A stretch of DNA of 64,000 bases from an uncultured Bacteroidales bacterium (lineage in GTDB: Bacteria > Bacteroidota > Bacteroidia > Bacteroidales > UBA932): positions 10,037 to 74,036 of the forward strand of contig CALVDR010000007.1 of NCBI GenBank assembly GCA_944326365.1. Reading direction: 5' to 3'. The notes beneath the pieces are model-generated. The model saw nothing but the letters and a program-made list of their open reading frames with translations. It ran no database searches and had not been told where the DNA came from. Positions within the stretch are counted from its first letter, which is position 1. Each line of letters begins with the position of its first letter. This document shows positions 854 to 61,199 of this stretch, one piece after another. A program made the position numbers and the translations under genes.

Positions 854-2068
854 ATGATTATCCTTGTATTGAATTGCGGAAGTTCGTCCCTCAAATATCA
901 GCTTCTCGATATGAAGGGTGACGAGGTATTCGACCTGATGGCCAAAGGCCTTGTCGAAAGAATCGGAATGGATGCCGGATGCATCAAGCATCAGACAGCC
1001 GGGAAAGAGAAATATGTGAAGGAAATGCCTATTCCTGACCATACGGTGGGTATCAAGGTCGTGCTTGACGCGCTCCTGGATTCCGAACATGGTGTCCTTT
1101 CCACACTTGAAGATATCGAGGCTGTAGGTCACCGTGTAGTGCACGGCGGCGAGGAGTTCTTCTGCAGCAAGCTCATCGATGAAAGCGTCATTGCTGAAAT
1201 CGAGAAATGTTCTGACCTGGCTCCGCTTCACAATCCTGCAAACCTTCTGGGAATCAAGGCTGTATCTGAGGTGCTCCCTACTGTCCCGCAGGTGGCCGTG
1301 TTCGATACCGCTTTCCATCAGACCATGCCGTCATATGCCTATATGTACGCGCTTCCTTATGAATATTACGAGAAATACCGTATCCGCAGGTACGGATTCC
1401 ATGGCACAAGCCACAAGTACGTGTCTGCGAAGGGTGCGAAATTTACCGGACTGGATCTCGAGAATTCGAAGATCATCACCTGCCATCTCGGAAACGGAAG
1501 TTCCATCACGGCCATAGCGAACGGCAAGTCCATCGATACTTCCATGGGTTTCACTCCGCTGGAGGGTATCATCATGGGTACAAGATGCGGATGCATCGAT
1601 CCTGAAATCGTCACTTTCCTTCAGGAAAAGGAAAATCTTTCCGCAGAGGAAGTGAACAAGGTGCTGAACAAGAAGAGCGGTTTTCTCGGTCTCTCCTGCA
1701 TATCTTCGGATGCCAGAGACCTGAACGATGCCGCCAACGCAGGTGACAGGAAGGCCAAGCTTACCCTGAAGAAGCTGGTGTACGACATCACAAAGTATAT
1801 CGGTGCCTATGCAGCAGTGATGAACGGTGTGGACCTGATAGTGTTTACCGGCGGTATCGGCGAGAACAACAGCCGTCTGCGCCGCAGGGTATGCGAGAAC
1901 CTTTCATATCTCGGATTGAAATTCGACTATGAGGCCAATGTGGCTACAGGGAAGGACACTCTGATATCCCTTCCTGATTCAAAGGTGAAGGTAGCTGTCA
2001 TCACCACTAACGAAGAGCTGGTGATCGCCCAGGATACCATGCATATCGTGAATGAGAATAACCAATAA
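854..2068 (+). CDS. ackA: acetate kinase
   Basis: 404 aa. The N-terminus MIILVLNCGSSSLKYQL and the blocks HRVVHGG, FDTAFHQTMP, RRYGFHGTSH are the classic acetate/propionate kinase signature. Confidence 0.93.
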   Translation: MIILVLNCGSSSLKYQLLDMKGDEVFDLMAKGLVERIGMDAGCIKHQTAGKEKYVKEMPIPDHTVGIKVVLDALLDSEHGVLSTLEDIEAVGHRVVHGGEEFFCSKLIDESVIAEIEKCSDLAPLHNPANLLGIKAVSEVLPTVPQVAVFDTAFHQTMPSYAYMYALPYEYYEKYRIRRYGFHGTSHKYVSAKGAKFTGLDLENSKIITCHLGNGSSITAIANGKSIDTSMGFTPLEGIIMGTRCGCIDPEIVTFLQEKENLSAEEVNKVLNKKSGFLGLSCISSDARDLNDAANAGDRKAKLTLKKLVYDITKYIGAYAAVMNGVDLIVFTGGIGENNSRLRRRVCENLSYLGLKFDYEANVATGKDTLISLPDSKVKVAVITTNEELVIAQDTMHIVNENNQ

Positions 2069-2081
2069 AACCACAGATAAG

Positions 2082-2990
2082 ATGTTTACGAAATTTGAAG
2101 ATATCTTTGCCGAACTTGCAGGCAGAGGTGCCAAGAAAAGAATGATTGCAGCCTGGGGCGTGGACGGTCATACCATAGCTGCCGCCAGCAAGGCCATCGA
2201 TCTCGGAATGATAGAAGCCACTCTCGTAGGAGACGAGGCCCTCATCAGGGAGCAGTGCGAGAAGGACGGCATCGACATATCGAAATTCACTATAGTGCAC
2301 AATCCGTCCGAACTTCCTGCAGTGGCGGAAGCCGTGACGATGGTGCGTGAAGGCCAGGGTGATATCCTGATGAAAGGTCTCTGCAGCACTGACAAGTTCA
2401 TGCGTGCTATCCTGAACAAGGAAACAGGACTTCTCCCTCCTAAGGCCGTTCTCAGCCATGTGTCCGTGATAGAGAATCCGAACTACCACAAACTCATTTT
2501 CCTGGGCGACATGGCCGTGATTCCTCTTCCTGACCTCAGCCAGAAGAAAGCCATACTTACTTATCTGGTCAATACGGCGCATTCCATGGGTATCGCTTGC
2601 CCGAAGGTGGCCATCATCGCCGCTACCGAGCAGATGCTTGAGAAGATGCCGGCCTGTGTCGAGGCTGCCGTCCTCGCGAAGAAAGTCGACAGGGGCGAGA
2701 TCAAGGGCTGCGTAGCTGACGGTCCTCTGGCACTTGACGTGGCCATAGATCAGGAATCCGTGGAGATAAAGCATCTGTCAAGCCCTGTGGCCGGTGATGC
2801 GGACTGCCTCCTCTTCCCTAATATCGAATCTGCGAATGTATTCTACAAGACCAATTCAAAACTGGCTGCAGGAGTGCATCAGGCAGGTATGGTCGTAGGT
2901 GCGAAAGTACCGTGCGTGCTTTCCAGCCGTGCCGATAGTATCGATACCAAACTGAATTCTATCGCCATCGCCGCGATGGCCGCAAAATAA
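2082..2990 (+). CDS. ptb: phosphate butyryltransferase / phosphate acyltransferase (Pta-Ptb family)
   Basis: About 300 aa Pta/Ptb-like protein (DILMKG, PNIESANVFYK, VLSSRADS). I chose the start at the internal ATG 2082 (MFTKFEDIF) because it lies 13 nt after the ackA stop. The ORF-track start at 2052 overlaps ackA. Confidence 0.8.
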   Translation: MFTKFEDIFAELAGRGAKKRMIAAWGVDGHTIAAASKAIDLGMIEATLVGDEALIREQCEKDGIDISKFTIVHNPSELPAVAEAVTMVREGQGDILMKGLCSTDKFMRAILNKETGLLPPKAVLSHVSVIENPNYHKLIFLGDMAVIPLPDLSQKKAILTYLVNTAHSMGIACPKVAIIAATEQMLEKMPACVEAAVLAKKVDRGEIKGCVADGPLALDVAIDQESVEIKHLSSPVAGDADCLLFPNIESANVFYKTNSKLAAGVHQAGMVVGAKVPCVLSSRADSIDTKLNSIAIAAMAAK

Positions 2991-2997
2991 TCCCGGA

Positions 2998-4110
2998 ATG
3001 TCTGGCAGGATTTTGGCGCTGAACACCGGTTCTACCACGACGAAGATAGGATATTATGATTCCGGCAGGAAGGTGTTCGAAGAGAACATCTTCCACAGCT
3101 GGGAGAAACTGTCCGGATACAACTCTGTAATGGACCAGGGCCATATGAGACTCGTCACCATTACAGAGTTTCTTTTGTCGAAGGGAATCCGGCTTGTCGA
3201 CATTGACCTGGTCATGGCCAGGTCCGGTCTTGTGACCCCTATGGAGACGGGGGTGTATGAAATTACGGAGATTCTGGAGGACGCTCTCAGACATTGCACG
3301 AACGGCGTGCATGCCTGCAACCTGTGCGGACTTCTGGCATGCGATATCGCTGTTCTGGTGAACGATGCCAGGGAAAAAGCCGGAATTCCGGAAGTCTGCA
3401 AGGCCTATATGGCTGATCCTCCCATGGCTGACGAGATGTTGCCCGAGGCGAAGATCGGCGGTATCCCGGAATTCCCGCGCAGGGCGCTCTGCCACGCATT
3501 GAATTCAAGGGCAGTGGTCAGACATTATGCGAAGGGGCTTGGAAAGGACCCGAAGGATGTCACGGCCATTGTGGCCCATATCGGTGGGGGCACGTCTGTC
3601 ACCCTTCACAAGGGCGGCCGAATCATCGATACGAATGATGCCTTGGGCGGTGACGGCCCTCTCAGTACTGAAAGAGCCGGGACAGTACCTGCCTTTCCTC
3701 TGATAGAAATGTGTTTCAGCGGGAAATACACGAAAGATGAAGTGAAGAGGAAACTGGTGGGAAACGGCGGTGCTGTGGCGTATTTCGGTACGAATGACTT
3801 CAAGTCCGTAGTAGCGATGGCTGACGAAGGCGACGAATCCGTGAAGGTTTTTCTCGAAGGGTTCTGCCTGAGCATAGCGAAATACATTGCCGGTCTGGCC
3901 ACTGATGTCTGCGGTCAGGTCGATGTGATCATACTTACCGGAGGCATTGCCTGGAATCAGGCACTTATGGAGAAGATACGGGCGAGGGTTTCCTTCATCG
4001 CTCCGGTGGAAGTATATCCTGGTGGAAACGAGATGGATTCCCTCGCGGAAAACGGCTACGGTATCCTTTCAGGCGAGATGGAGGTCAAATATTACCATCC
4101 GTGCAGGTGA
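2998..4110 (+). CDS. buk: butyrate kinase
   Basis: 370 aa. ILALNTGSTTTKIGYYD N-terminus, HIGGGTSV and ILTGGIA blocks of the ASKHA-fold butyrate kinase family. It sits directly downstream of ptb. Confidence 0.9.
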   Translation: MSGRILALNTGSTTTKIGYYDSGRKVFEENIFHSWEKLSGYNSVMDQGHMRLVTITEFLLSKGIRLVDIDLVMARSGLVTPMETGVYEITEILEDALRHCTNGVHACNLCGLLACDIAVLVNDAREKAGIPEVCKAYMADPPMADEMLPEAKIGGIPEFPRRALCHALNSRAVVRHYAKGLGKDPKDVTAIVAHIGGGTSVTLHKGGRIIDTNDALGGDGPLSTERAGTVPAFPLIEMCFSGKYTKDEVKRKLVGNGGAVAYFGTNDFKSVVAMADEGDESVKVFLEGFCLSIAKYIAGLATDVCGQVDVIILTGGIAWNQALMEKIRARVSFIAPVEVYPGGNEMDSLAENGYGILSGEMEVKYYHPCR

Positions 4111-5401
4111 AAAGGTCACGGACAGGCAGGGATGAACCATAGAGTTCCCTGCATTTTCTGAACAGGGCCTCGGTGTATTTCGTGAAACCGGGGCCTTTCC
4201 ATGTGCTGGTGTTGGTGATCATTATCCAGCATTCGCCGTCCGGAAAATATTTTACCAGGGCGCTGGTTCCTCCGAGTGTCCCTGTCCTGGTCCATTCCCC
4301 GTCAGGTTTCGTGTCGTTCCATCCCAGAGAATAGGTCTCCGGATCGAAGTATTCCGTCATTTCGGCTACGCTTTCAGCGGAAATGATGTCCGGGACAGCC
4401 GGTTTTCCGTCGATGGACGCCACGAATCGACTGAGCTCTGCAGGCGAGCCGCACCATGCTCCCGCACCGGAAAGCCCGTGTATGTCATTGGCCCCGTAGC
4501 AGCGTTCCACCATGCGTCCGCTCAGATTGTATTCTTCCCTCGGTTCGGATCCGGCATGCATGTAATACCGGACTTCGTTGGGGTATTTTTCTTCGTAGTA
4601 GTTGGCTGCGAGATGCATGTCATAGCACCCTGCAGGATGCAGCACGTTTTCCTGTATGAAGGTTTCGTAGTCGGTGCCGCTGATTTTCTCGATGATCATA
4701 GACAGGAGGAGGTAGCCGAAGTTCGAGTATCTCTGCCATGTGCCCGGTTTGTAGCCGAGCGGACGGGAGAGCACGCACTTGACCAGCGTCTCGTGATCCG
4801 GAGCTCCGTCCAGCCTGAATTGTCTGATGATGTCCTGGGTGGAGAACATGGGGTCGCCGCGGCTGTTCGTGAATCCGGCCTTGTGGCGCAGCAGCTGTTC
4901 TACCGTGATGCCGAATTTGGCCTTTTCCCTGATGGCTGCCGTGAAGATCGAGTCATTCAGTATGCCATGTTCGCCGAATACGGTGTCCTGCAGGGATATT
5001 TGTCCTCTTTCCTTCAGTACCATGATGCCGGCGGCAGTGATGAGTTTGGATACTGAAGCCATGCGGAGAATGTGTCCGGATGTCATCTTTTCGCCCTTCG
5101 CTTCGTCTGCATAGCCGTATCCTTTCGCATACAGAAGCGAGTCATTCCTCATTATGGCCAGGGACGCTCCTTTGATTTCCCAGAGTTTCAGGAATTTCTC
5201 TATCCGTGAGTCCATCTTTTCCAGAGAGGGACAGGCTGACATGCTGTCGGACAACGCTTCATTCAGGCACAGTACGGCGGCATTGCCGGCTTCTGACTGT
5301 ACCGGTTCGGATTTCGATGAGGACGAAAGCGGGAGTATGACTGCCAGCAGCAGTGCCACGGCTATGGCAGGAGTGAGGATAAGAAGCCTTTTCCTGCTCA
5401 T
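4085..5401 (-). CDS. serine hydrolase (beta-lactamase / PBP4-like class C family), secreted
   Basis: S-x-x-K motif (MASVSKLITAAG). Start set at ATG 5401-5399 (MSRKRLLILTPAIAVALLLAV, signal/anchor), which forms an ATGA overlap with the stop of the upstream gene. The 3' end overlaps the buk 3' end by 26 nt. Confidence 0.8.
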   Translation of the reverse strand: MSRKRLLILTPAIAVALLLAVILPLSSSSKSEPVQSEAGNAAVLCLNEALSDSMSACPSLEKMDSRIEKFLKLWEIKGASLAIMRNDSLLYAKGYGYADEAKGEKMTSGHILRMASVSKLITAAGIMVLKERGQISLQDTVFGEHGILNDSIFTAAIREKAKFGITVEQLLRHKAGFTNSRGDPMFSTQDIIRQFRLDGAPDHETLVKCVLSRPLGYKPGTWQRYSNFGYLLLSMIIEKISGTDYETFIQENVLHPAGCYDMHLAANYYEEKYPNEVRYYMHAGSEPREEYNLSGRMVERCYGANDIHGLSGAGAWCGSPAELSRFVASIDGKPAVPDIISAESVAEMTEYFDPETYSLGWNDTKPDGEWTRTGTLGGTSALVKYFPDGECWIMITNTSTWKGPGFTKYTEALFRKCRELYGSSLPVRDLFTCTDGNI

Positions 5402-35414: not shown

Positions 35415-36166
35415 TGGAGGAGAACTGTAACATGCCGGCCGGAGCCGGGGCTTCCGACTGGAAAGAGCGTACTTCGCTTCTCATAGGGCAGGATGGAGTG
35501 GCCAGACTGGCCCGTGCCACGGTAGCCGTGATAGGTGCCGGTGGAGTCGGGGGTTTTGCCGCCGAGATGATAGCCCGCGCCGGGGTGGGAAGGATGATCA
35601 TCATGGACAGTGATACGGTGTCAGTGACGAACAAGAACAGGCAGCTGCTGGCGCTGGATTCCACCATAGGCAGACCGAAATGCGATGTCCTGGCCGAAAG
35701 GCTCAGGGATATAAATCCGGAGATTGGCCTGAGGGTCTGCGGCCAATACCTGGAGGCTGACGGAGTGGGTGAGATATTCGACGGGGAGAAGGTGGATGTC
35801 GTGGTAGATGCCATAGATACCATTGCCCCGAAACTGGCTTTGATCAAGTATTGCCTCGACAGAGGCATACCGGTGGTGTCATCGATGGGGGCCGGGGCGA
35901 AACGGGATGCGACGAAGATCAGGATAGCGGACATTTCGAAGACATTCAACTGTCCGCTGGCTTTCATTGTCAGGAAAAGGCTGCGCCGGATGGGGATAAC
36001 CAAAGGCGTGACGGCGGTATTTTCCGAGGAACTGCCGGACAAGGATGCTTTCATTGTCTGCGACGAAAAGAACAAGAAGTCGAATGCGGGGACCATTTCC
36101 TATATTCCCGCCGTTTTCGGGTGCGCCTGTGCCCAGGCGGCCATAGATACCCTTCTCGGATTTTGA
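35414..36166 (+). CDS. tcdA: tRNA threonylcarbamoyladenosine dehydratase (ThiF/MoeB-fold, TcdA/CsdL)
   Basis: 250 aa. Rossmann VAVIGAGGVGGFAAEMIARAGVG, DSDTVSVTNKNRQ, DAIDT. 1-nt TGATG junction with mazG. Confidence 0.8.
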   Translation: MEENCNMPAGAGASDWKERTSLLIGQDGVARLARATVAVIGAGGVGGFAAEMIARAGVGRMIIMDSDTVSVTNKNRQLLALDSTIGRPKCDVLAERLRDINPEIGLRVCGQYLEADGVGEIFDGEKVDVVVDAIDTIAPKLALIKYCLDRGIPVVSSMGAGAKRDATKIRIADISKTFNCPLAFIVRKRLRRMGITKGVTAVFSEELPDKDAFIVCDEKNKKSNAGTISYIPAVFGCACAQAAIDTLLGF

Positions 36167-36191
36167 CATTTTTTGATTTTTGTTATCTTTG
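36162..36191 (+). promoter_or_regulatory. putative Bacteroides-type promoter
   Basis: TTTG (36162-36165), 18 nt, then TATCTTTG (36184-36191), about 43 nt upstream of the ATG at 36234. Confidence 0.35.
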
Positions 36192-36233
36192 CAGGATTGT
36201 AGAAGAGATTGTTGATTTGTTGTAATTTGTTCT

Positions 36234-40753: not shown

Positions 40754-41422
40754 ATGTCCATGACGGTCAAGGGAATATTTTTCGATATGGACGGTGTGGT
40801 TGTGGACAGCGATCCGTTGTGGAACACCATTATCCGGACTGTCCGGGAGGAATATGCTCTGGACATGTCCTGTCTGGAAAGATCTGACGGGTACAATCTT
40901 TCGACCGGAGAGGCCATACGTCTGGTTCTGGAAGACAAGGGGCGATATTCCGATGCACTTCTTGAAGAGATTCTGCACAGGATCGATATCTTTTACTCCT
41001 TGCATCTGGATATGGTTTCATTGATGCCCGGCATGGCAGAGACGCTGGAAATGCTTCATGAAAGGAGGGTGCATACAGCCCTTGTCAGCAATTCATCCCG
41101 CCGACAGGTGGACATGGTTCTGGACAGTCTCTGTCTGAGAAAGTATTTCCAGACAGTGGTGACTGCCGATGACGTGACATGCGGCAAGCCTGATGCAGAG
41201 CCATATCTCAGAGCAATGGAACTGACCGGGCTGACAGCGGCGGATGCAGTGGCAGTGGAGGATTCTCCGACAGGAATCGCCGCGGCTGTGAATGCCGGAC
41301 TGCTCTGTCTGGTTCCTGTCCCGGCAGATTTCAAATCATGCGGTACGAAGGATCATGACGGAATCTGCCATGTCCGCCGTGAAAGTCTATATGGAAAATT
41401 GGATAAATTTGTCAAAGCGTGA
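40754..41422 (+). CDS. HAD-family hydrolase
   Basis: Start at ATG 40754 (MSMTVKGIFFDMDGVVVDS). Motifs DxDG, VSNS, K...EDS. Follows thiD. Confidence 0.8.
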   Translation: MSMTVKGIFFDMDGVVVDSDPLWNTIIRTVREEYALDMSCLERSDGYNLSTGEAIRLVLEDKGRYSDALLEEILHRIDIFYSLHLDMVSLMPGMAETLEMLHERRVHTALVSNSSRRQVDMVLDSLCLRKYFQTVVTADDVTCGKPDAEPYLRAMELTGLTAADAVAVEDSPTGIAAAVNAGLLCLVPVPADFKSCGTKDHDGICHVRRESLYGKLDKFVKA

Positions 41423-41427
41423 GTTCG

Positions 41428-41901
41428 ATGAAAAAGATCATTAACCCGTGGCTCGGTCTTGAAGACCAGGGCTACAACTGTTTCGGCTGTGCTCCGTCAA
41501 ACAAGTACGGCCTGAAGATGGAGTTCTATGAAGACGGTGACGATGTGGTTTCATATTGGAATCCTTCCGATGACTACCAGGGCTGGCTGCATACGCTTCA
41601 CGGAGGTATCCAGTCCACATTGATGGATGAGATAGCTATGTGGGTGATAGCGCGGAAACTCCAGACTTCCGGCATGACCACCAGAATGGATATCAAGTTC
41701 CGCAAACCGGTGCCAACAGGTCCGGATGTGAGGATAGAGATCCGTTCACATATCATGGAGATGAAGCGCAATTTCGCTATTCTGCACGCCTGCGTCATGC
41801 ATGAAGGTACCGTATGTTCGGAGGCGGAGATCACCTATTTCTGTTTCCCGAAAGAAAAGGCGGCTTCGGATTTCTATTTCAACGGCTGTGACGTGGAATG
41901 A
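41428..41901 (+). CDS. PaaI-family hotdog-fold thioesterase
   Basis: 157 aa from ATG 41428 (MKKIINPW...). The CFGC zinc-ribbon-like start followed by LHGGIQSTLMDEIAMW is typical of PaaI/YbgC-like thioesterases. The ORF-track start is GTG 41419. Confidence 0.75.
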   Translation: MKKIINPWLGLEDQGYNCFGCAPSNKYGLKMEFYEDGDDVVSYWNPSDDYQGWLHTLHGGIQSTLMDEIAMWVIARKLQTSGMTTRMDIKFRKPVPTGPDVRIEIRSHIMEMKRNFAILHACVMHEGTVCSEAEITYFCFPKEKAASDFYFNGCDVE

Positions 41902-41966: not shown

Positions 41967-41993
41967 AATATCCGCCTGCAGTTGATAAATTAA

Positions 41994-42199
41994 CGTGAGT
42001 TCGATGAAAAGAACGTAGTGAATTTCAGAGAACTACCTCTTTTAGAGGATTCGTAAAACGAATCCGTGGGTAAGTCCTCCCCTCGATAGGGGAGAATTTA
42101 GGTGGGGTGACACGTAAAAGGAAGGAGATTTCGCAGAAATCGTAACGTCAGTTCGACGAAATCTCTGGTACTGAGCAGAATAATTCGTCGAACCGACGT
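41994..42199. repeat. ~205-nt hairpin-rich repeat element, copy 1
   Basis: By manual alignment, about 88% identical to 60456-60661 in the same orientation. Serial short hairpins plus a 16-bp terminal stem ACGTCAGTTCGACGAA (42145-42160) / TTCGTCGAACCGACGT (42184-42199, 1 mismatch). The left end CGTGAGTTCGATGAA is an imperfect inverted copy of the right end. Confidence 0.8.
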
Positions 42200-42211
42200 T
42201 AAATTAAAAGA

Positions 42212-42258
42212 GAAAGGTGGCTGAAAGGGCTTCAATTTGATCCCTTTAGTCACCTTTC
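42212..42258 (-). terminator. probable terminator of the fab operon
   Basis: Imperfect long hairpin GAAAGGTGGCTGAAAGGG...CCCTTTAGTCACCTTTC. On the minus strand it is followed by TCTCTTTTAATTT. Lies 26 nt after the fabZ stop. Confidence 0.45.
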
Positions 42259-60421: not shown

Positions 60422-60455
60422 CAGGAATACGCCAATACAATGTAATATAATAATA

Positions 60456-60661
60456 TTGAGTTCGATGAAAAGAACATAGTGAATTTCAGAGAACTACCTC
60501 TTATAGAGGATTCGTTTTACGAATCCGGCAGTAAGTTCTCCCCTCGATAGGGGAGAATTTAAGAGGGGAGACACGTAGACAAAAGAGAGATTTCGAAGAA
60601 ATCGTAACGTCAGTTCGACGAAGTCTCTGATACTAAGTAGAATAATTCGTCGAACTGACGT
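60456..60661. repeat. ~205-nt hairpin-rich repeat element, copy 2
   Basis: Same orientation as copy 1. Hairpins: CCTCT-tat-AGAGG (60497-60509), GGATTCG-tttta-CGAATCC (60508-60526), TTCTCCCCT-cgat-AGGGGAGAA (60536-60557), GATTTC-gaa-GAAATC (60589-60603). Perfect 16-bp stem 60607-60622 / 60646-60661. Confidence 0.8.
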
Positions 60662-60668
60662 GAGTATA

Positions 60669-61199
60669 ATGAGACACAGTATTTTCAGAACCGCCGTCAT
60701 CATTGCCGCCTTTTCCGTGCTTCTGCCGCTTGCAGGCTGCGATATGTTCCGTTCTCTGGCAGGCAGACCTACGGCTGAGGAGGTGGAACTGCTGCGTATA
60801 GAGAAATTGAAGGCCGAAGAGGCTGTCAGACAGGCCCGTGTGGACTCTCTTGCCAGACTGCAGGCTGAGATGGAAGACTCTCTGGCCATCATGGATTCCC
60901 TGTCGCAGATCCAGGGGACCATATTGAACCCTTCGGAAATGGGAGGTCTGTTCACCACCAGGCTGGATTCCCGATATTATATCGTAGTCGGCTCTTTCAG
61001 AAGCCGCAGCAATGCCGAAACTCTCTTTACCCAGGTCAGGGAAAAAGGCTACAGCCCGATCCTGATCAACTTCCGCAACGGTTTCAATTCCATCGCAGTA
61101 TCTCCGGCTGACAGTCTGCGTGAGGCTTTCCATGCCCTCAGAGCCGTCAAGGCCGAGCCGTTCTGTCCTGATGATGTATGGATTCTGGTAAATGAATAG
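60669..61199 (+). CDS. SPOR-domain lipoprotein
   Basis: Start at ATG 60669 (MRHSIFRTAVIIAAFSVLLPLAGC); the track start at 60660 is GTG inside the repeat. C-terminal SPOR pattern YYIVVGSFRSRSNAETLFTQVREKGYSPILI. Confidence 0.75.
   Translation: MRHSIFRTAVIIAAFSVLLPLAGCDMFRSLAGRPTAEEVELLRIEKLKAEEAVRQARVDSLARLQAEMEDSLAIMDSLSQIQGTILNPSEMGGLFTTRLDSRYYIVVGSFRSRSNAETLFTQVREKGYSPILINFRNGFNSIAVSPADSLREAFHALRAVKAEPFCPDDVWILVNE

Follow-up and report, generated by a model that had tools for sequence, protein, structure and literature searches.

Correia elements (CREE/NEMIS) of Neisseria are miniature inverted-repeat transposable elements (MITEs) of roughly 100–150 bp that are bounded by terminal inverted repeats (TIRs), duplicate a TA on insertion, and number in the hundreds. 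Most of them are intergenic and near genes, and they are co-transcribed into mRNAs as stable hairpins and alter the expression of their neighbors; their transposase belongs to another family or to none assigned, and their functions (as promoters, RNase III processing sites, and IHF sites) have been demonstrated experimentally. BOX elements of Streptococcus pneumoniae have end modules that pair with each other and an internal module that varies in number, fold stably, and are also intergenic and near genes. Insertion sequences (ISs) of the IS982 family are listed in the ISfinder table as elements of about 1 kb with ends that begin with AC and duplications of 3–9 bp. Here we describe a noncoding repeat of ~207 bp that occurs twice in a 64,000-nucleotide stretch of DNA (the window) from an uncultured Bacteroidales bacterium (contig CALVDR010000007.1, positions 10,037 to 74,036) and that is very probably a MITE of a known kind, associated with the IS982 family. 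The family to which it belongs, which is found in Candidatus (Ca.) Cryptobacteroides, resembles Correia elements as a multicopy, TIR-bounded MITE with hairpins that is mostly intergenic and close to genes. It differs from them in duplicating 6–8 bp rather than TA and in being known from sequence, whereas Correia function rests on experiment. With BOX elements it shares a modular build, stable folding, and an intergenic position near genes; BOX elements, however, lack a defined TIR and duplication pattern or a transposase, whereas in the present case the ends, the duplications, and an IS982-family partner were identified, and an optional ~50-nucleotide module is present zero to two times, without long arrays.

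An IS982-derived MITE of ~240 bp is already known from a Bacteroidota symbiont, Cardinium (PMC9769881). This element (MITECca01/ISCca4, from the Cardinium of Oedothorax gibbosus) is likewise noncoding, has inverted repeats that match the ends of a ~1-kb IS from the IS982 family, and is present in many copies that are presumed to be mobilized in trans (PMC9769881). The Cryptobacteroides MITE differs from it in host lineage and TIR sequence and, whereas MITECca01 retains a short IS-derived sequence beside its left repeat (PMC9769881), shares only the TIRs with its IS. It also possesses a third, internal TIR copy and GC-rich hairpin modules, occurs in several modular size classes and in many species, and shows a strong bias for positions just 5′ of start codons. 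IS1187 and other IS982-family ISs of Bacteroides, which are about 1 kb in size, have the same transposase family as the autonomous elements that share the TIRs described below, and the outward promoter of IS1187 activates cfiA (PMC9330008). These ISs are autonomous, each with its own transposase, whereas the window element is noncoding and without a demonstrated promoter.

Ends, target-site duplications, and mobility of the repeat

The two window copies, designated A and B, are in the same orientation, as the original prediction had stated, and are 88.8% identical over 205 nucleotides (blastn, E 1e-72); a third full copy was not detected in the 64-kb window by blastn. Boundaries were refined by family-wide flank comparison and from metagenome contig breakpoints, which placed copy A at 41993–42199 (plus strand, 207 bp, complete) and copy B at 60454–60661 (plus strand, 208 bp), both in the subfamily referred to below as subfamily 1. 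Comparison of the flanks of 72 full copies fixed the ends of the element as A-CGTGAG...CTGACG-T, with 16-bp TIRs (ACGTGAGTTCGATGAA...TTCGTCGAACTGACGT) that match at 14 of 16 positions and mismatch at two. The left TIR of copy A, ACGTGAGTTCGATGAA (41993–42008, plus strand), is identical to the ends of metagenomic IS982-family elements, and the right TIR, TTCGTCGAACCGACGT (42184–42199, plus strand), is nearly invariant in an alignment of 58 copies. Copy A is flanked by a 7-bp target-site duplication, TAAATTA, that was read from the sequence at 41986–41992 and 42200–42206. In copy B, the first three nucleotides of the left TIR are degenerate (TATTGAG versus ACGTGAG), and no recognizable target-site duplication is present at its flanks.

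A scan of one genome per species with a right-hairpin pattern yielded at least 94 loci from about 20 assemblies, all of them metagenome-assembled genomes (MAGs) of Ca. Cryptobacteroides or uncultured Bacteroidales; one MAG alone accounted for at least 16 loci. Viral contigs contained no match to the hairpin pattern. Logan contig depth in four chicken or fecal metagenomes was 1000–4400 over the element compared with 12–16 in the flanks, corresponding to a ratio of 100–300, and metagenome contigs break at 41988–41991 and at 42201, that is, at the ends of copy A, with the same pattern apparent for copy B.

At the fixed boundaries of the 71–72 full copies, exact duplications of 6 bp were present in 18–19 copies, of 7 bp in 19, and of 8 bp in four, and 10 further copies had a 7-bp duplication with one mismatch. 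Exact 6–8-bp duplications were thus found in 41 of 71 copies, whereas shuffled flank pairs gave a 7-bp match in 1.4% of trials. The duplications are AT-rich and begin with TA, examples being TAAATTA, TAGATTA, TAAGCTA, and TAAAGCA. Duplication of TA alone, as for IS630/mariner-like elements, was rejected given that exact 6–8-mers such as TAAGCTA and TAAAGCA are duplicated.

Two related MAGs provided clean reciprocal filled and empty sites. At a TAATAA site, locus L085 is filled (...caacaTAATAA[element]TAATAAaattt) and L061 is empty (...caacaTAATAAaattt); at a TAATTTA site, L061 is filled and L085 is empty. These reciprocal sites show that the MITE moves. Loci L029 and L082 represent one divergent intergenic region with independent insertions at different sites and in opposite orientations, each pointing at one of the two divergent genes. 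The original prediction had offered, as one of two possibilities, a nonautonomous mobile element with TIRs of ~20 bp; TIRs of 16–19 bp, 6–8-bp duplications, copies well beyond the window, empty sites, and an IS982-family partner bear this out.

Two further types of junction were noted. Head-to-tail tandem MITEs separated by just one unit of the target duplication (TATTATA or TAAATTA) occur at L082 (6049–6330), where the second MITE has an internal deletion, and at joints from 60661 to 60457 with TAAATTAACG in between. L044, a copy without a duplication, has a left flank that matches the L004 site at 99.7% identity but a right flank identical to a different site, L046, which suggests a chimeric MAG join, or recombination between copies, at the repeat.

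A probable IS982-family partner with the same ends

A search of metagenomes for left TIRs whose adjoining interior differs from that of every MITE variant (position +5 not A) gave at least 120 loci. Among them are elements of 1026–1038 bp that carry the same 16–17-nucleotide TIR at both ends and are flanked by 6–7-bp duplications of the TAnnnTA type (TATATTA, TAAATTA, TATTTA, TAATTA). The identical TIR stretch shared by MITE and IS measures 16–19 nucleotides, and the type of target duplication is also the same, TA-initial and AT-rich (6–8 bp for the MITE and 6–7 bp for the IS). Each IS contains a single open reading frame (ORF) of 301–333 amino acids, which matched the NCBIfam model NF033520 (IS982 family transposase) with 262 and 235 bits (cutoff 130) and Pfam DDE_Tnp_1_3 (PF13612) with 234 bits. 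The shared TIR accompanies transposases of 46–100% identity, and a near-identical IS is very abundant in the chicken-gut metagenomes that contain the window's organism. Judged from the shared ends, the IS982-family transposase is likely the mobilizing enzyme of the MITE.

The same 16-nucleotide TIR was also observed on many other short elements in human-gut and other metagenomes (L095–L214), with lengths of about 41–54, 116, 151, 183–228, 287–307, 381, 574, 821, and 952 bp. In one such element, of 381 bp, the transposase gene is reduced to its first and last ~45 codons. These elements suggest that one IS982 subgroup is accompanied by an entire set of MITE families.

Internal architecture and subfamilies

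The layout given in the original prediction was recovered in full: the left unit, (A)CGTGAGTTCGATGAA, and the short hairpins are present in the window copies, the left end is an imperfect inverted copy of the right end, and each copy contains the SAGTTCGAYGAA unit three times, twice in direct and once in inverted orientation. At the right, 42145–42160 pairs with 42184–42199 in a 16-bp stem that encloses a 23-nucleotide loop, and the 5′ arm of this stem is an internal inverted copy of the right TIR, ACGTCAGTTCGACGAA (42145–42160, plus strand). The right module of copy B (60607–60661, plus strand) is built in the same manner, with an internal TIR copy at 60607–60622, a 23-nucleotide loop, and the right TIR at 60646–60661, and its 16-bp stem is perfect. 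The pairing of the right TIR with this third, internal copy means that the larger element in effect ends in a smaller, minimal MITE. Region 42145–42199 is indeed equivalent to a complete minimal MITE of 55–56 bp (TIR-loop-TIR, a 53–54-nucleotide core plus the terminal A and T), and solo hairpin elements of this kind carry their own 7-bp duplication, as in L059 with TATCTTA. A small hairpin, GATTTC-gca-GAAATC (42127–42141, plus strand), is invariant across both subfamilies in the 58-copy alignment.

The sole ORF in the 207–208-bp element is one of four codons (ATG..TAG) in or beside the TIR, and no transposase gene is present; MITEs generally measure less than about 300–500 bp and lack such a gene. 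This mini-ORF (MKRT) had been highlighted as conserved. It does exist, but its ATG belongs to the TIR and the frame in subfamily 2 differs after the ATG; it is therefore incidental and merely follows from the conserved TIR.

BLAST and pattern analysis of the loci distinguished several forms. Subfamily 1 comprises ~25 full-length copies that are 82–96% identical to copy A and have a core of 205–206 nucleotides. Subfamily 2 (the 230-bp form, with a core of 227–232 nucleotides) has the same architecture and has only the right 75 nucleotides in common with subfamily 1, at ~80% identity. Longer variants of 274–318 nucleotides contain one or two copies of an extra ~50-nucleotide module, and the minimal form is the TIR-loop-TIR hairpin. 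The MITE family has thus diversified in Ca. Cryptobacteroides into modular subfamilies with forms of 55–56, 207, 230, and 275–320 bp.

The ~50-nucleotide module, GTCGTGAGCGGTTTATGAGAATGTCCGGTGGACATTCGAAAGCGAGCAG, is present zero to two times per element (L011, L020, L043, L075, L079, and L093 in subfamily 2; L042 in subfamily 1). It substitutes for the 3′ arms of internal hairpins and holds an 8-bp stem, and it has no match in Rfam. Its identification as a hammerhead ribozyme was rejected, with the CUGAUGA core being absent on inspection and Rfam silent. Another variant, the subfamily-1 copy at 2779–2985 of L036 (minus strand), has an inverted left hairpin loop (TTCACTTCGTTCT versus AGAACGAAGTGAA) and also a perfect TCATCGAAC arm; judged from its sequence, the inversion looks like a palindrome flip or a template-switch event.

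Folding of the element

Compared with dinucleotide shuffles, the element folds strongly, with z-scores of –5.3 for copy A and –6.9 for copy B on the plus strand and –6.75 for copy A on the minus strand; both strands fold equally well. The observation that substitutions between the two copies avoid stems held in the sense that, when both sequences are folded to a consensus, unpaired columns contain 26 of the 27 differences, a figure that is inflated because the structure was derived from the same two sequences.

In the 58-copy alignment, both subfamilies keep the GGATTTC-nnn-GAAATCC hairpin and the long-stem loop, and the central hairpins have wholly different sequences in the two. In subfamily 2, the outer six nucleotides of the internal TIR copy vary freely, which indicates that the outer long stem is not kept as a pair. 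Double compensatory changes affect three positions of one subfamily 2 helix (GCAGGAC/GTCCTGC, GCAGAAC/GTTCTGC, GCAGGAT/ATCCTGC, and ACAGGAC/GTCCTGT), and another helix alternates between GCCCCC/GGGGGC and CCTCCC/GGGAGG. Because the MAFFT alignment of subfamily 2 has a one-column offset in the variable helix, a regular-expression search served to count the arm pairs. Hairpin formation is therefore maintained, although template switching in DNA palindromes could give rise to the same compensatory pattern without selection on RNA. G·U and A·C exceptions in the variable helix number three and two, respectively, and both strands fold equally, so that neither strand is favored. RNAalifold applied to the mixed 58-copy alignment mostly paired the two TIRs and was uninformative.

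Rfam (release 15) returned no match in the window at the gathering score, only weak chance matches (E ≥ 0.08) for both copies at a permissive threshold, and no match in 10 loci with other variants. Ten genes downstream of the element represent ten unrelated families (SufB, C_GCAxxG_C_C family protein, PhoU, methyltransferase, CYTH, HMA, acyltransferase, radical-SAM activase, aminotransferase, and GNAT), and a dedicated riboswitch or regulon leader is therefore unlikely.

Placement relative to start codons

Among the 57 copies with enough flank, the start of an ORF of at least 80 amino acids lies within 30 nucleotides beyond the right end in 25 and beyond the left end in two. Between co-directional gene pairs, the element is co-oriented with the genes in 24 cases and opposed in seven. 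Binomial probabilities for these comparisons were about 6e-6 (25 versus 2) and about 0.003 (24 versus 7), with orthologous loci rendering the counts not fully independent. According to simple gene calls, 31 of 42 co-directional downstream starts are situated 2–33 nucleotides from the right end, whereas starts facing the left end are mostly at least 45 nucleotides away, a distance that leaves room for a promoter. None of the copies interrupts a long ORF. Near-symmetric TIRs should let a DDE transposase insert the element in either orientation, and the asymmetry is therefore most simply explained by post-insertion selection. The right-end bias probably reflects selection against a polar orientation, or a leader or promoter supplied by the element.

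In 64 of 72 copies, the antisense strand has a T-rich tract after the conserved small hairpin, and this combination is a candidate orientation-specific terminator. Terminator-like matches on the sense strand mostly consist of a 4–5-bp mini-stem in the TIR with the AT-rich duplication behind it. The element is found in metatranscriptome assemblies, as are contigs that run from its right end into downstream flanks, and RNA depth over the element is ~30–180 times that of the flanks, compared with the DNA copy ratio of 100–300.

Genomic context of the two window copies

Copy A lies between convergent genes for a 4HBT thioesterase (plus strand) and a FabA-like dehydratase (minus strand), each of which has its own terminator hairpin. 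Copy B is situated in a divergent intergenic region, with 7 nucleotides separating its end from the ATG (60669) of a gene for a SPOR-domain lipoprotein (60669–61199, plus strand; Pfam SPOR match), and such abutment of the right end on a start codon is the typical context for this MITE family. Ordinary housekeeping genes surround both copies, and the host is a chicken-gut Bacteroidales. Copy A is an intact, recent-looking insertion. Copy B was found in strains of all four metagenomes examined and is therefore an older, fixed copy, the left terminus of which has decayed.

In metagenome run X2, a contig from a relative that has diverged to ~87% identity runs from the thioesterase side straight into the FabA-like gene (window 41985–42258). 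Its junction omits both the MITE and the adjacent terminator hairpin and has eight other letters in between, so that the site is empty of the element there. A syntenic locus of another Cryptobacteroides species (L083 3140–5100 versus window 36146–36233) has a 2-kb insertion that comprises an AAA-ATPase-like gene between direct repeats of ~38 nucleotides (ttatgcaaaatcggaattcaat/tgaattccgaaattacataaa), a MITE copy, and an array of ~60-nucleotide tandem repeats at 4830–5070; because of this additional insertion in the region, the synteny comparison yielded no clean empty site.

A solitary left-TIR-like sequence, (G)CGTGAGTTCGATGAAAA (41417–41434, plus strand), matches the start of copy A exactly over 17 nucleotides. 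It is located at the junction of a HAD hydrolase gene and the 4HBT thioesterase gene and contains a TGA stop codon (41420–41422) and an ATG start codon (41428). Analogous solo TIRs provide the ATG of unrelated genes in L025 (~3808), L042 (~6043), and L074 (~3527). The sequence at 41417–41434 may be the scar of a former MITE copy, and these solo TIRs may each mark the deletion, between two ATGAAA microhomologies, of a MITE that lay upstream of the gene.

Discussion

The TIRs, the target-site duplications, the presence of at least 94 loci in ~20 genomes, the empty sites, and the matching IS982-family element together identify the window repeat as a MITE. The family has not been previously described in these bacteria, and the element itself is of an ordinary kind. 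We propose that an IS982-family DDE transposase supplied in trans would bind the TIRs and insert the element at AT-rich TA(n2-4)TA or TAAnnnA sites, with duplication of 6–8 bp. Post-insertion selection would then leave survivors that are mainly intergenic and co-oriented with local transcription and that have their right end 2–33 nucleotides before a start codon. The sense strand would probably be read through, or start transcription itself, and so give a structured 5′ leader, whereas the antisense hairpin with its U-tract would terminate incoming transcripts. Insertion between a promoter and a start codon would thus be tolerated only if incoming transcription reads the sense strand, in which case the gene would gain a 200-nucleotide structured leader or the right end would supply its own start; the opposite orientation would be polar and be purged.

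Several observations weigh against this account. No IS982 copy was detected in the window or in the 94 Cryptobacteroides loci, in which transposases were sought by clustering of ORFs of at least 200 amino acids and by tblastn, and the IS-bearing metagenome contigs come from other Bacteroidales rather than from Cryptobacteroides, so that a cognate transposase in the genomes that carry the MITE is hypothetical. The MITE and the IS show no detectable similarity beyond their TIRs, and the interior of the MITE is not a simple deletion derivative of the IS. About 16 of 71 copies have no duplication beyond TA; at least one of them looks like a chimeric join at the repeat, an explanation that may not cover all of them. 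With regard to placement, some loci are orthologous between species representatives, which lowers the independence of the bias counts, and the stem of the candidate antisense terminator is weak and AU-rich. Inspection of the alignment did not reveal a Bacteroides promoter (–33 TTTG/–7 TAnnTTTG, the motif as cited in PMC9330008) near the right end. Finally, the metatranscriptomes consist of unstranded assembled contigs in which the element is present at about its DNA-copy ratio.

The other possibility raised by the original prediction was that the repeats constitute a family of structured noncoding or cis-regulatory RNAs, riboswitch-like or small RNAs, the copies being their genes rather than insertions. 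The folding z-scores of –5.3 to –6.9, the avoidance of stems by the differences between the window copies, the persistence of pairing in internal stems that differ between subfamilies, and the regular position 5′ of ORFs are all in keeping with such a family. The TIRs, target-site duplications, and empty sites indicate instead that copies arise by transposition, Rfam gave no match at gathering or E-value thresholds, the two strands fold equally and the G·U and A·C counts carry no strand signal, the downstream genes are unrelated, and 12 of 72 copies, including copy A, lie between convergent genes. A structured RNA family as a stand-alone explanation is largely refuted, and we consider it highly improbable. 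We also considered an element with hairpin ends moved as a single strand, either PATE or REP/BIME-like, mobilized by IS200/IS605 TnpA or RAYT and possibly with a TnpB/IscB guide-RNA scaffold, or the remnant of an IS110-type bridge RNA. Similar hairpins can be drawn at both ends (GTTCGATGA...TCATCGAAC at the left and GTTCGACGAA...TTCGTCGAAC at the right), the interior is highly structured, and the strong orientation bias relative to genes recalls the bias of single-strand transposons relative to replication. Exact 6–8-bp duplications and 16-bp TIRs are nevertheless the rule for this family, whereas, to our knowledge, IS200/IS605, RAYT, and IS110 elements have neither 6–8-bp target duplications nor true TIRs; elements of the PATE and REP (RAYT) type insert 3′ of a fixed tetra- or pentanucleotide and depend on a Y1 transposase. 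The autonomous element, moreover, encodes a DDE transposase of the IS982 family and not Y1, TnpB, or DEDD, and no match to HEARO or any other Rfam family was obtained. The idea of an IS200/IS605 PATE or an omega RNA, which derived from the similar end hairpins, was rejected on the basis of the duplications and the DDE partner, and we regard the single-strand explanation as scarcely credible.

An IS982-associated MITE could in addition have been exapted for regulation, with copies just before start codons being kept for an outward promoter from the right end or for a structured 5′ leader governing mRNA stability or translation. This proposal is compatible with the MITE interpretation, to which it adds a positive function that would resemble Correia elements or mobile promoters of the IS1187 type, and we view it as possible but tentative. 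It would account for the extreme right-end bias (25 versus 2 of 57), for the clustering of right-end-to-start distances at 2–33 nucleotides in 31 of 42 co-directional cases, and for conservation of the right 75 nucleotides, loop included, across subfamilies and well beyond the TIR. Compensatory changes keep the hairpins (GGAC/GTCC, GAAC/GTTC, and GGAT/ATCC), copy B has been kept 7 nucleotides from a start codon in four of four metagenomes despite the loss of its left terminus, and the metatranscriptome contigs extend from the right end into downstream flanks. IS1187, itself a member of the IS982 family, has a complete outward promoter in Bacteroides fragilis (PMC9330008). In the MITE, by contrast, no –33 TTTG/–7 TAnnTTTG pair at suitable spacing was found, the best candidate being a partial –7-like sequence, TAAATTCG, that is present in subfamily 2 only and lacks a –33 box. 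Purifying selection against the polarity of wrongly oriented copies can alone explain the bias, compensatory changes in palindromes can come from template switching, the RNA depth ratio (~30–180) does not exceed the DNA copy ratio, and copy A, between convergent genes, has no gene to serve. A broader version, in which the family has been recruited genome-wide as a portable, orientation-specific expression module, seems to us unlikely. If it were true, the element in sense orientation would equip dozens of unrelated genes with a promoter or a long structured 5′ leader, in antisense orientation it would act as a terminator or insulator, exchangeable hairpin modules including the ~50-nucleotide cassette would tune the effect, and each solitary TIR fused to a start codon would be a relic of domestication.

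Identification of the repeat as an IS982-associated MITE does not overturn current understanding, given that MITEs, including IS982-derived ones in Bacteroidota, are already known; only the modular hairpin architecture, the nested minimal MITE, and the strong bias for positions just 5′ of start codons go beyond the routine. Within a gut genus that is abundant and uncultured, the family is nonetheless a major repeat. Short-read contigs stop precisely where the element begins or ends, the repeat probably creates chimeric joins in MAGs, and knowledge of its ends, duplication pattern, and IS982 affiliation allows it to be masked, provides filled or empty sites as strain markers, and prevents its being called a novel RNA in error. 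The MITE is located between the promoters and start codons of many housekeeping genes, and its right-end bias offers a natural system in which to study how Bacteroidota, in which initiation is not driven by Shine-Dalgarno sequences, tolerate or exploit a structured insertion of 200 nucleotides near a start codon.

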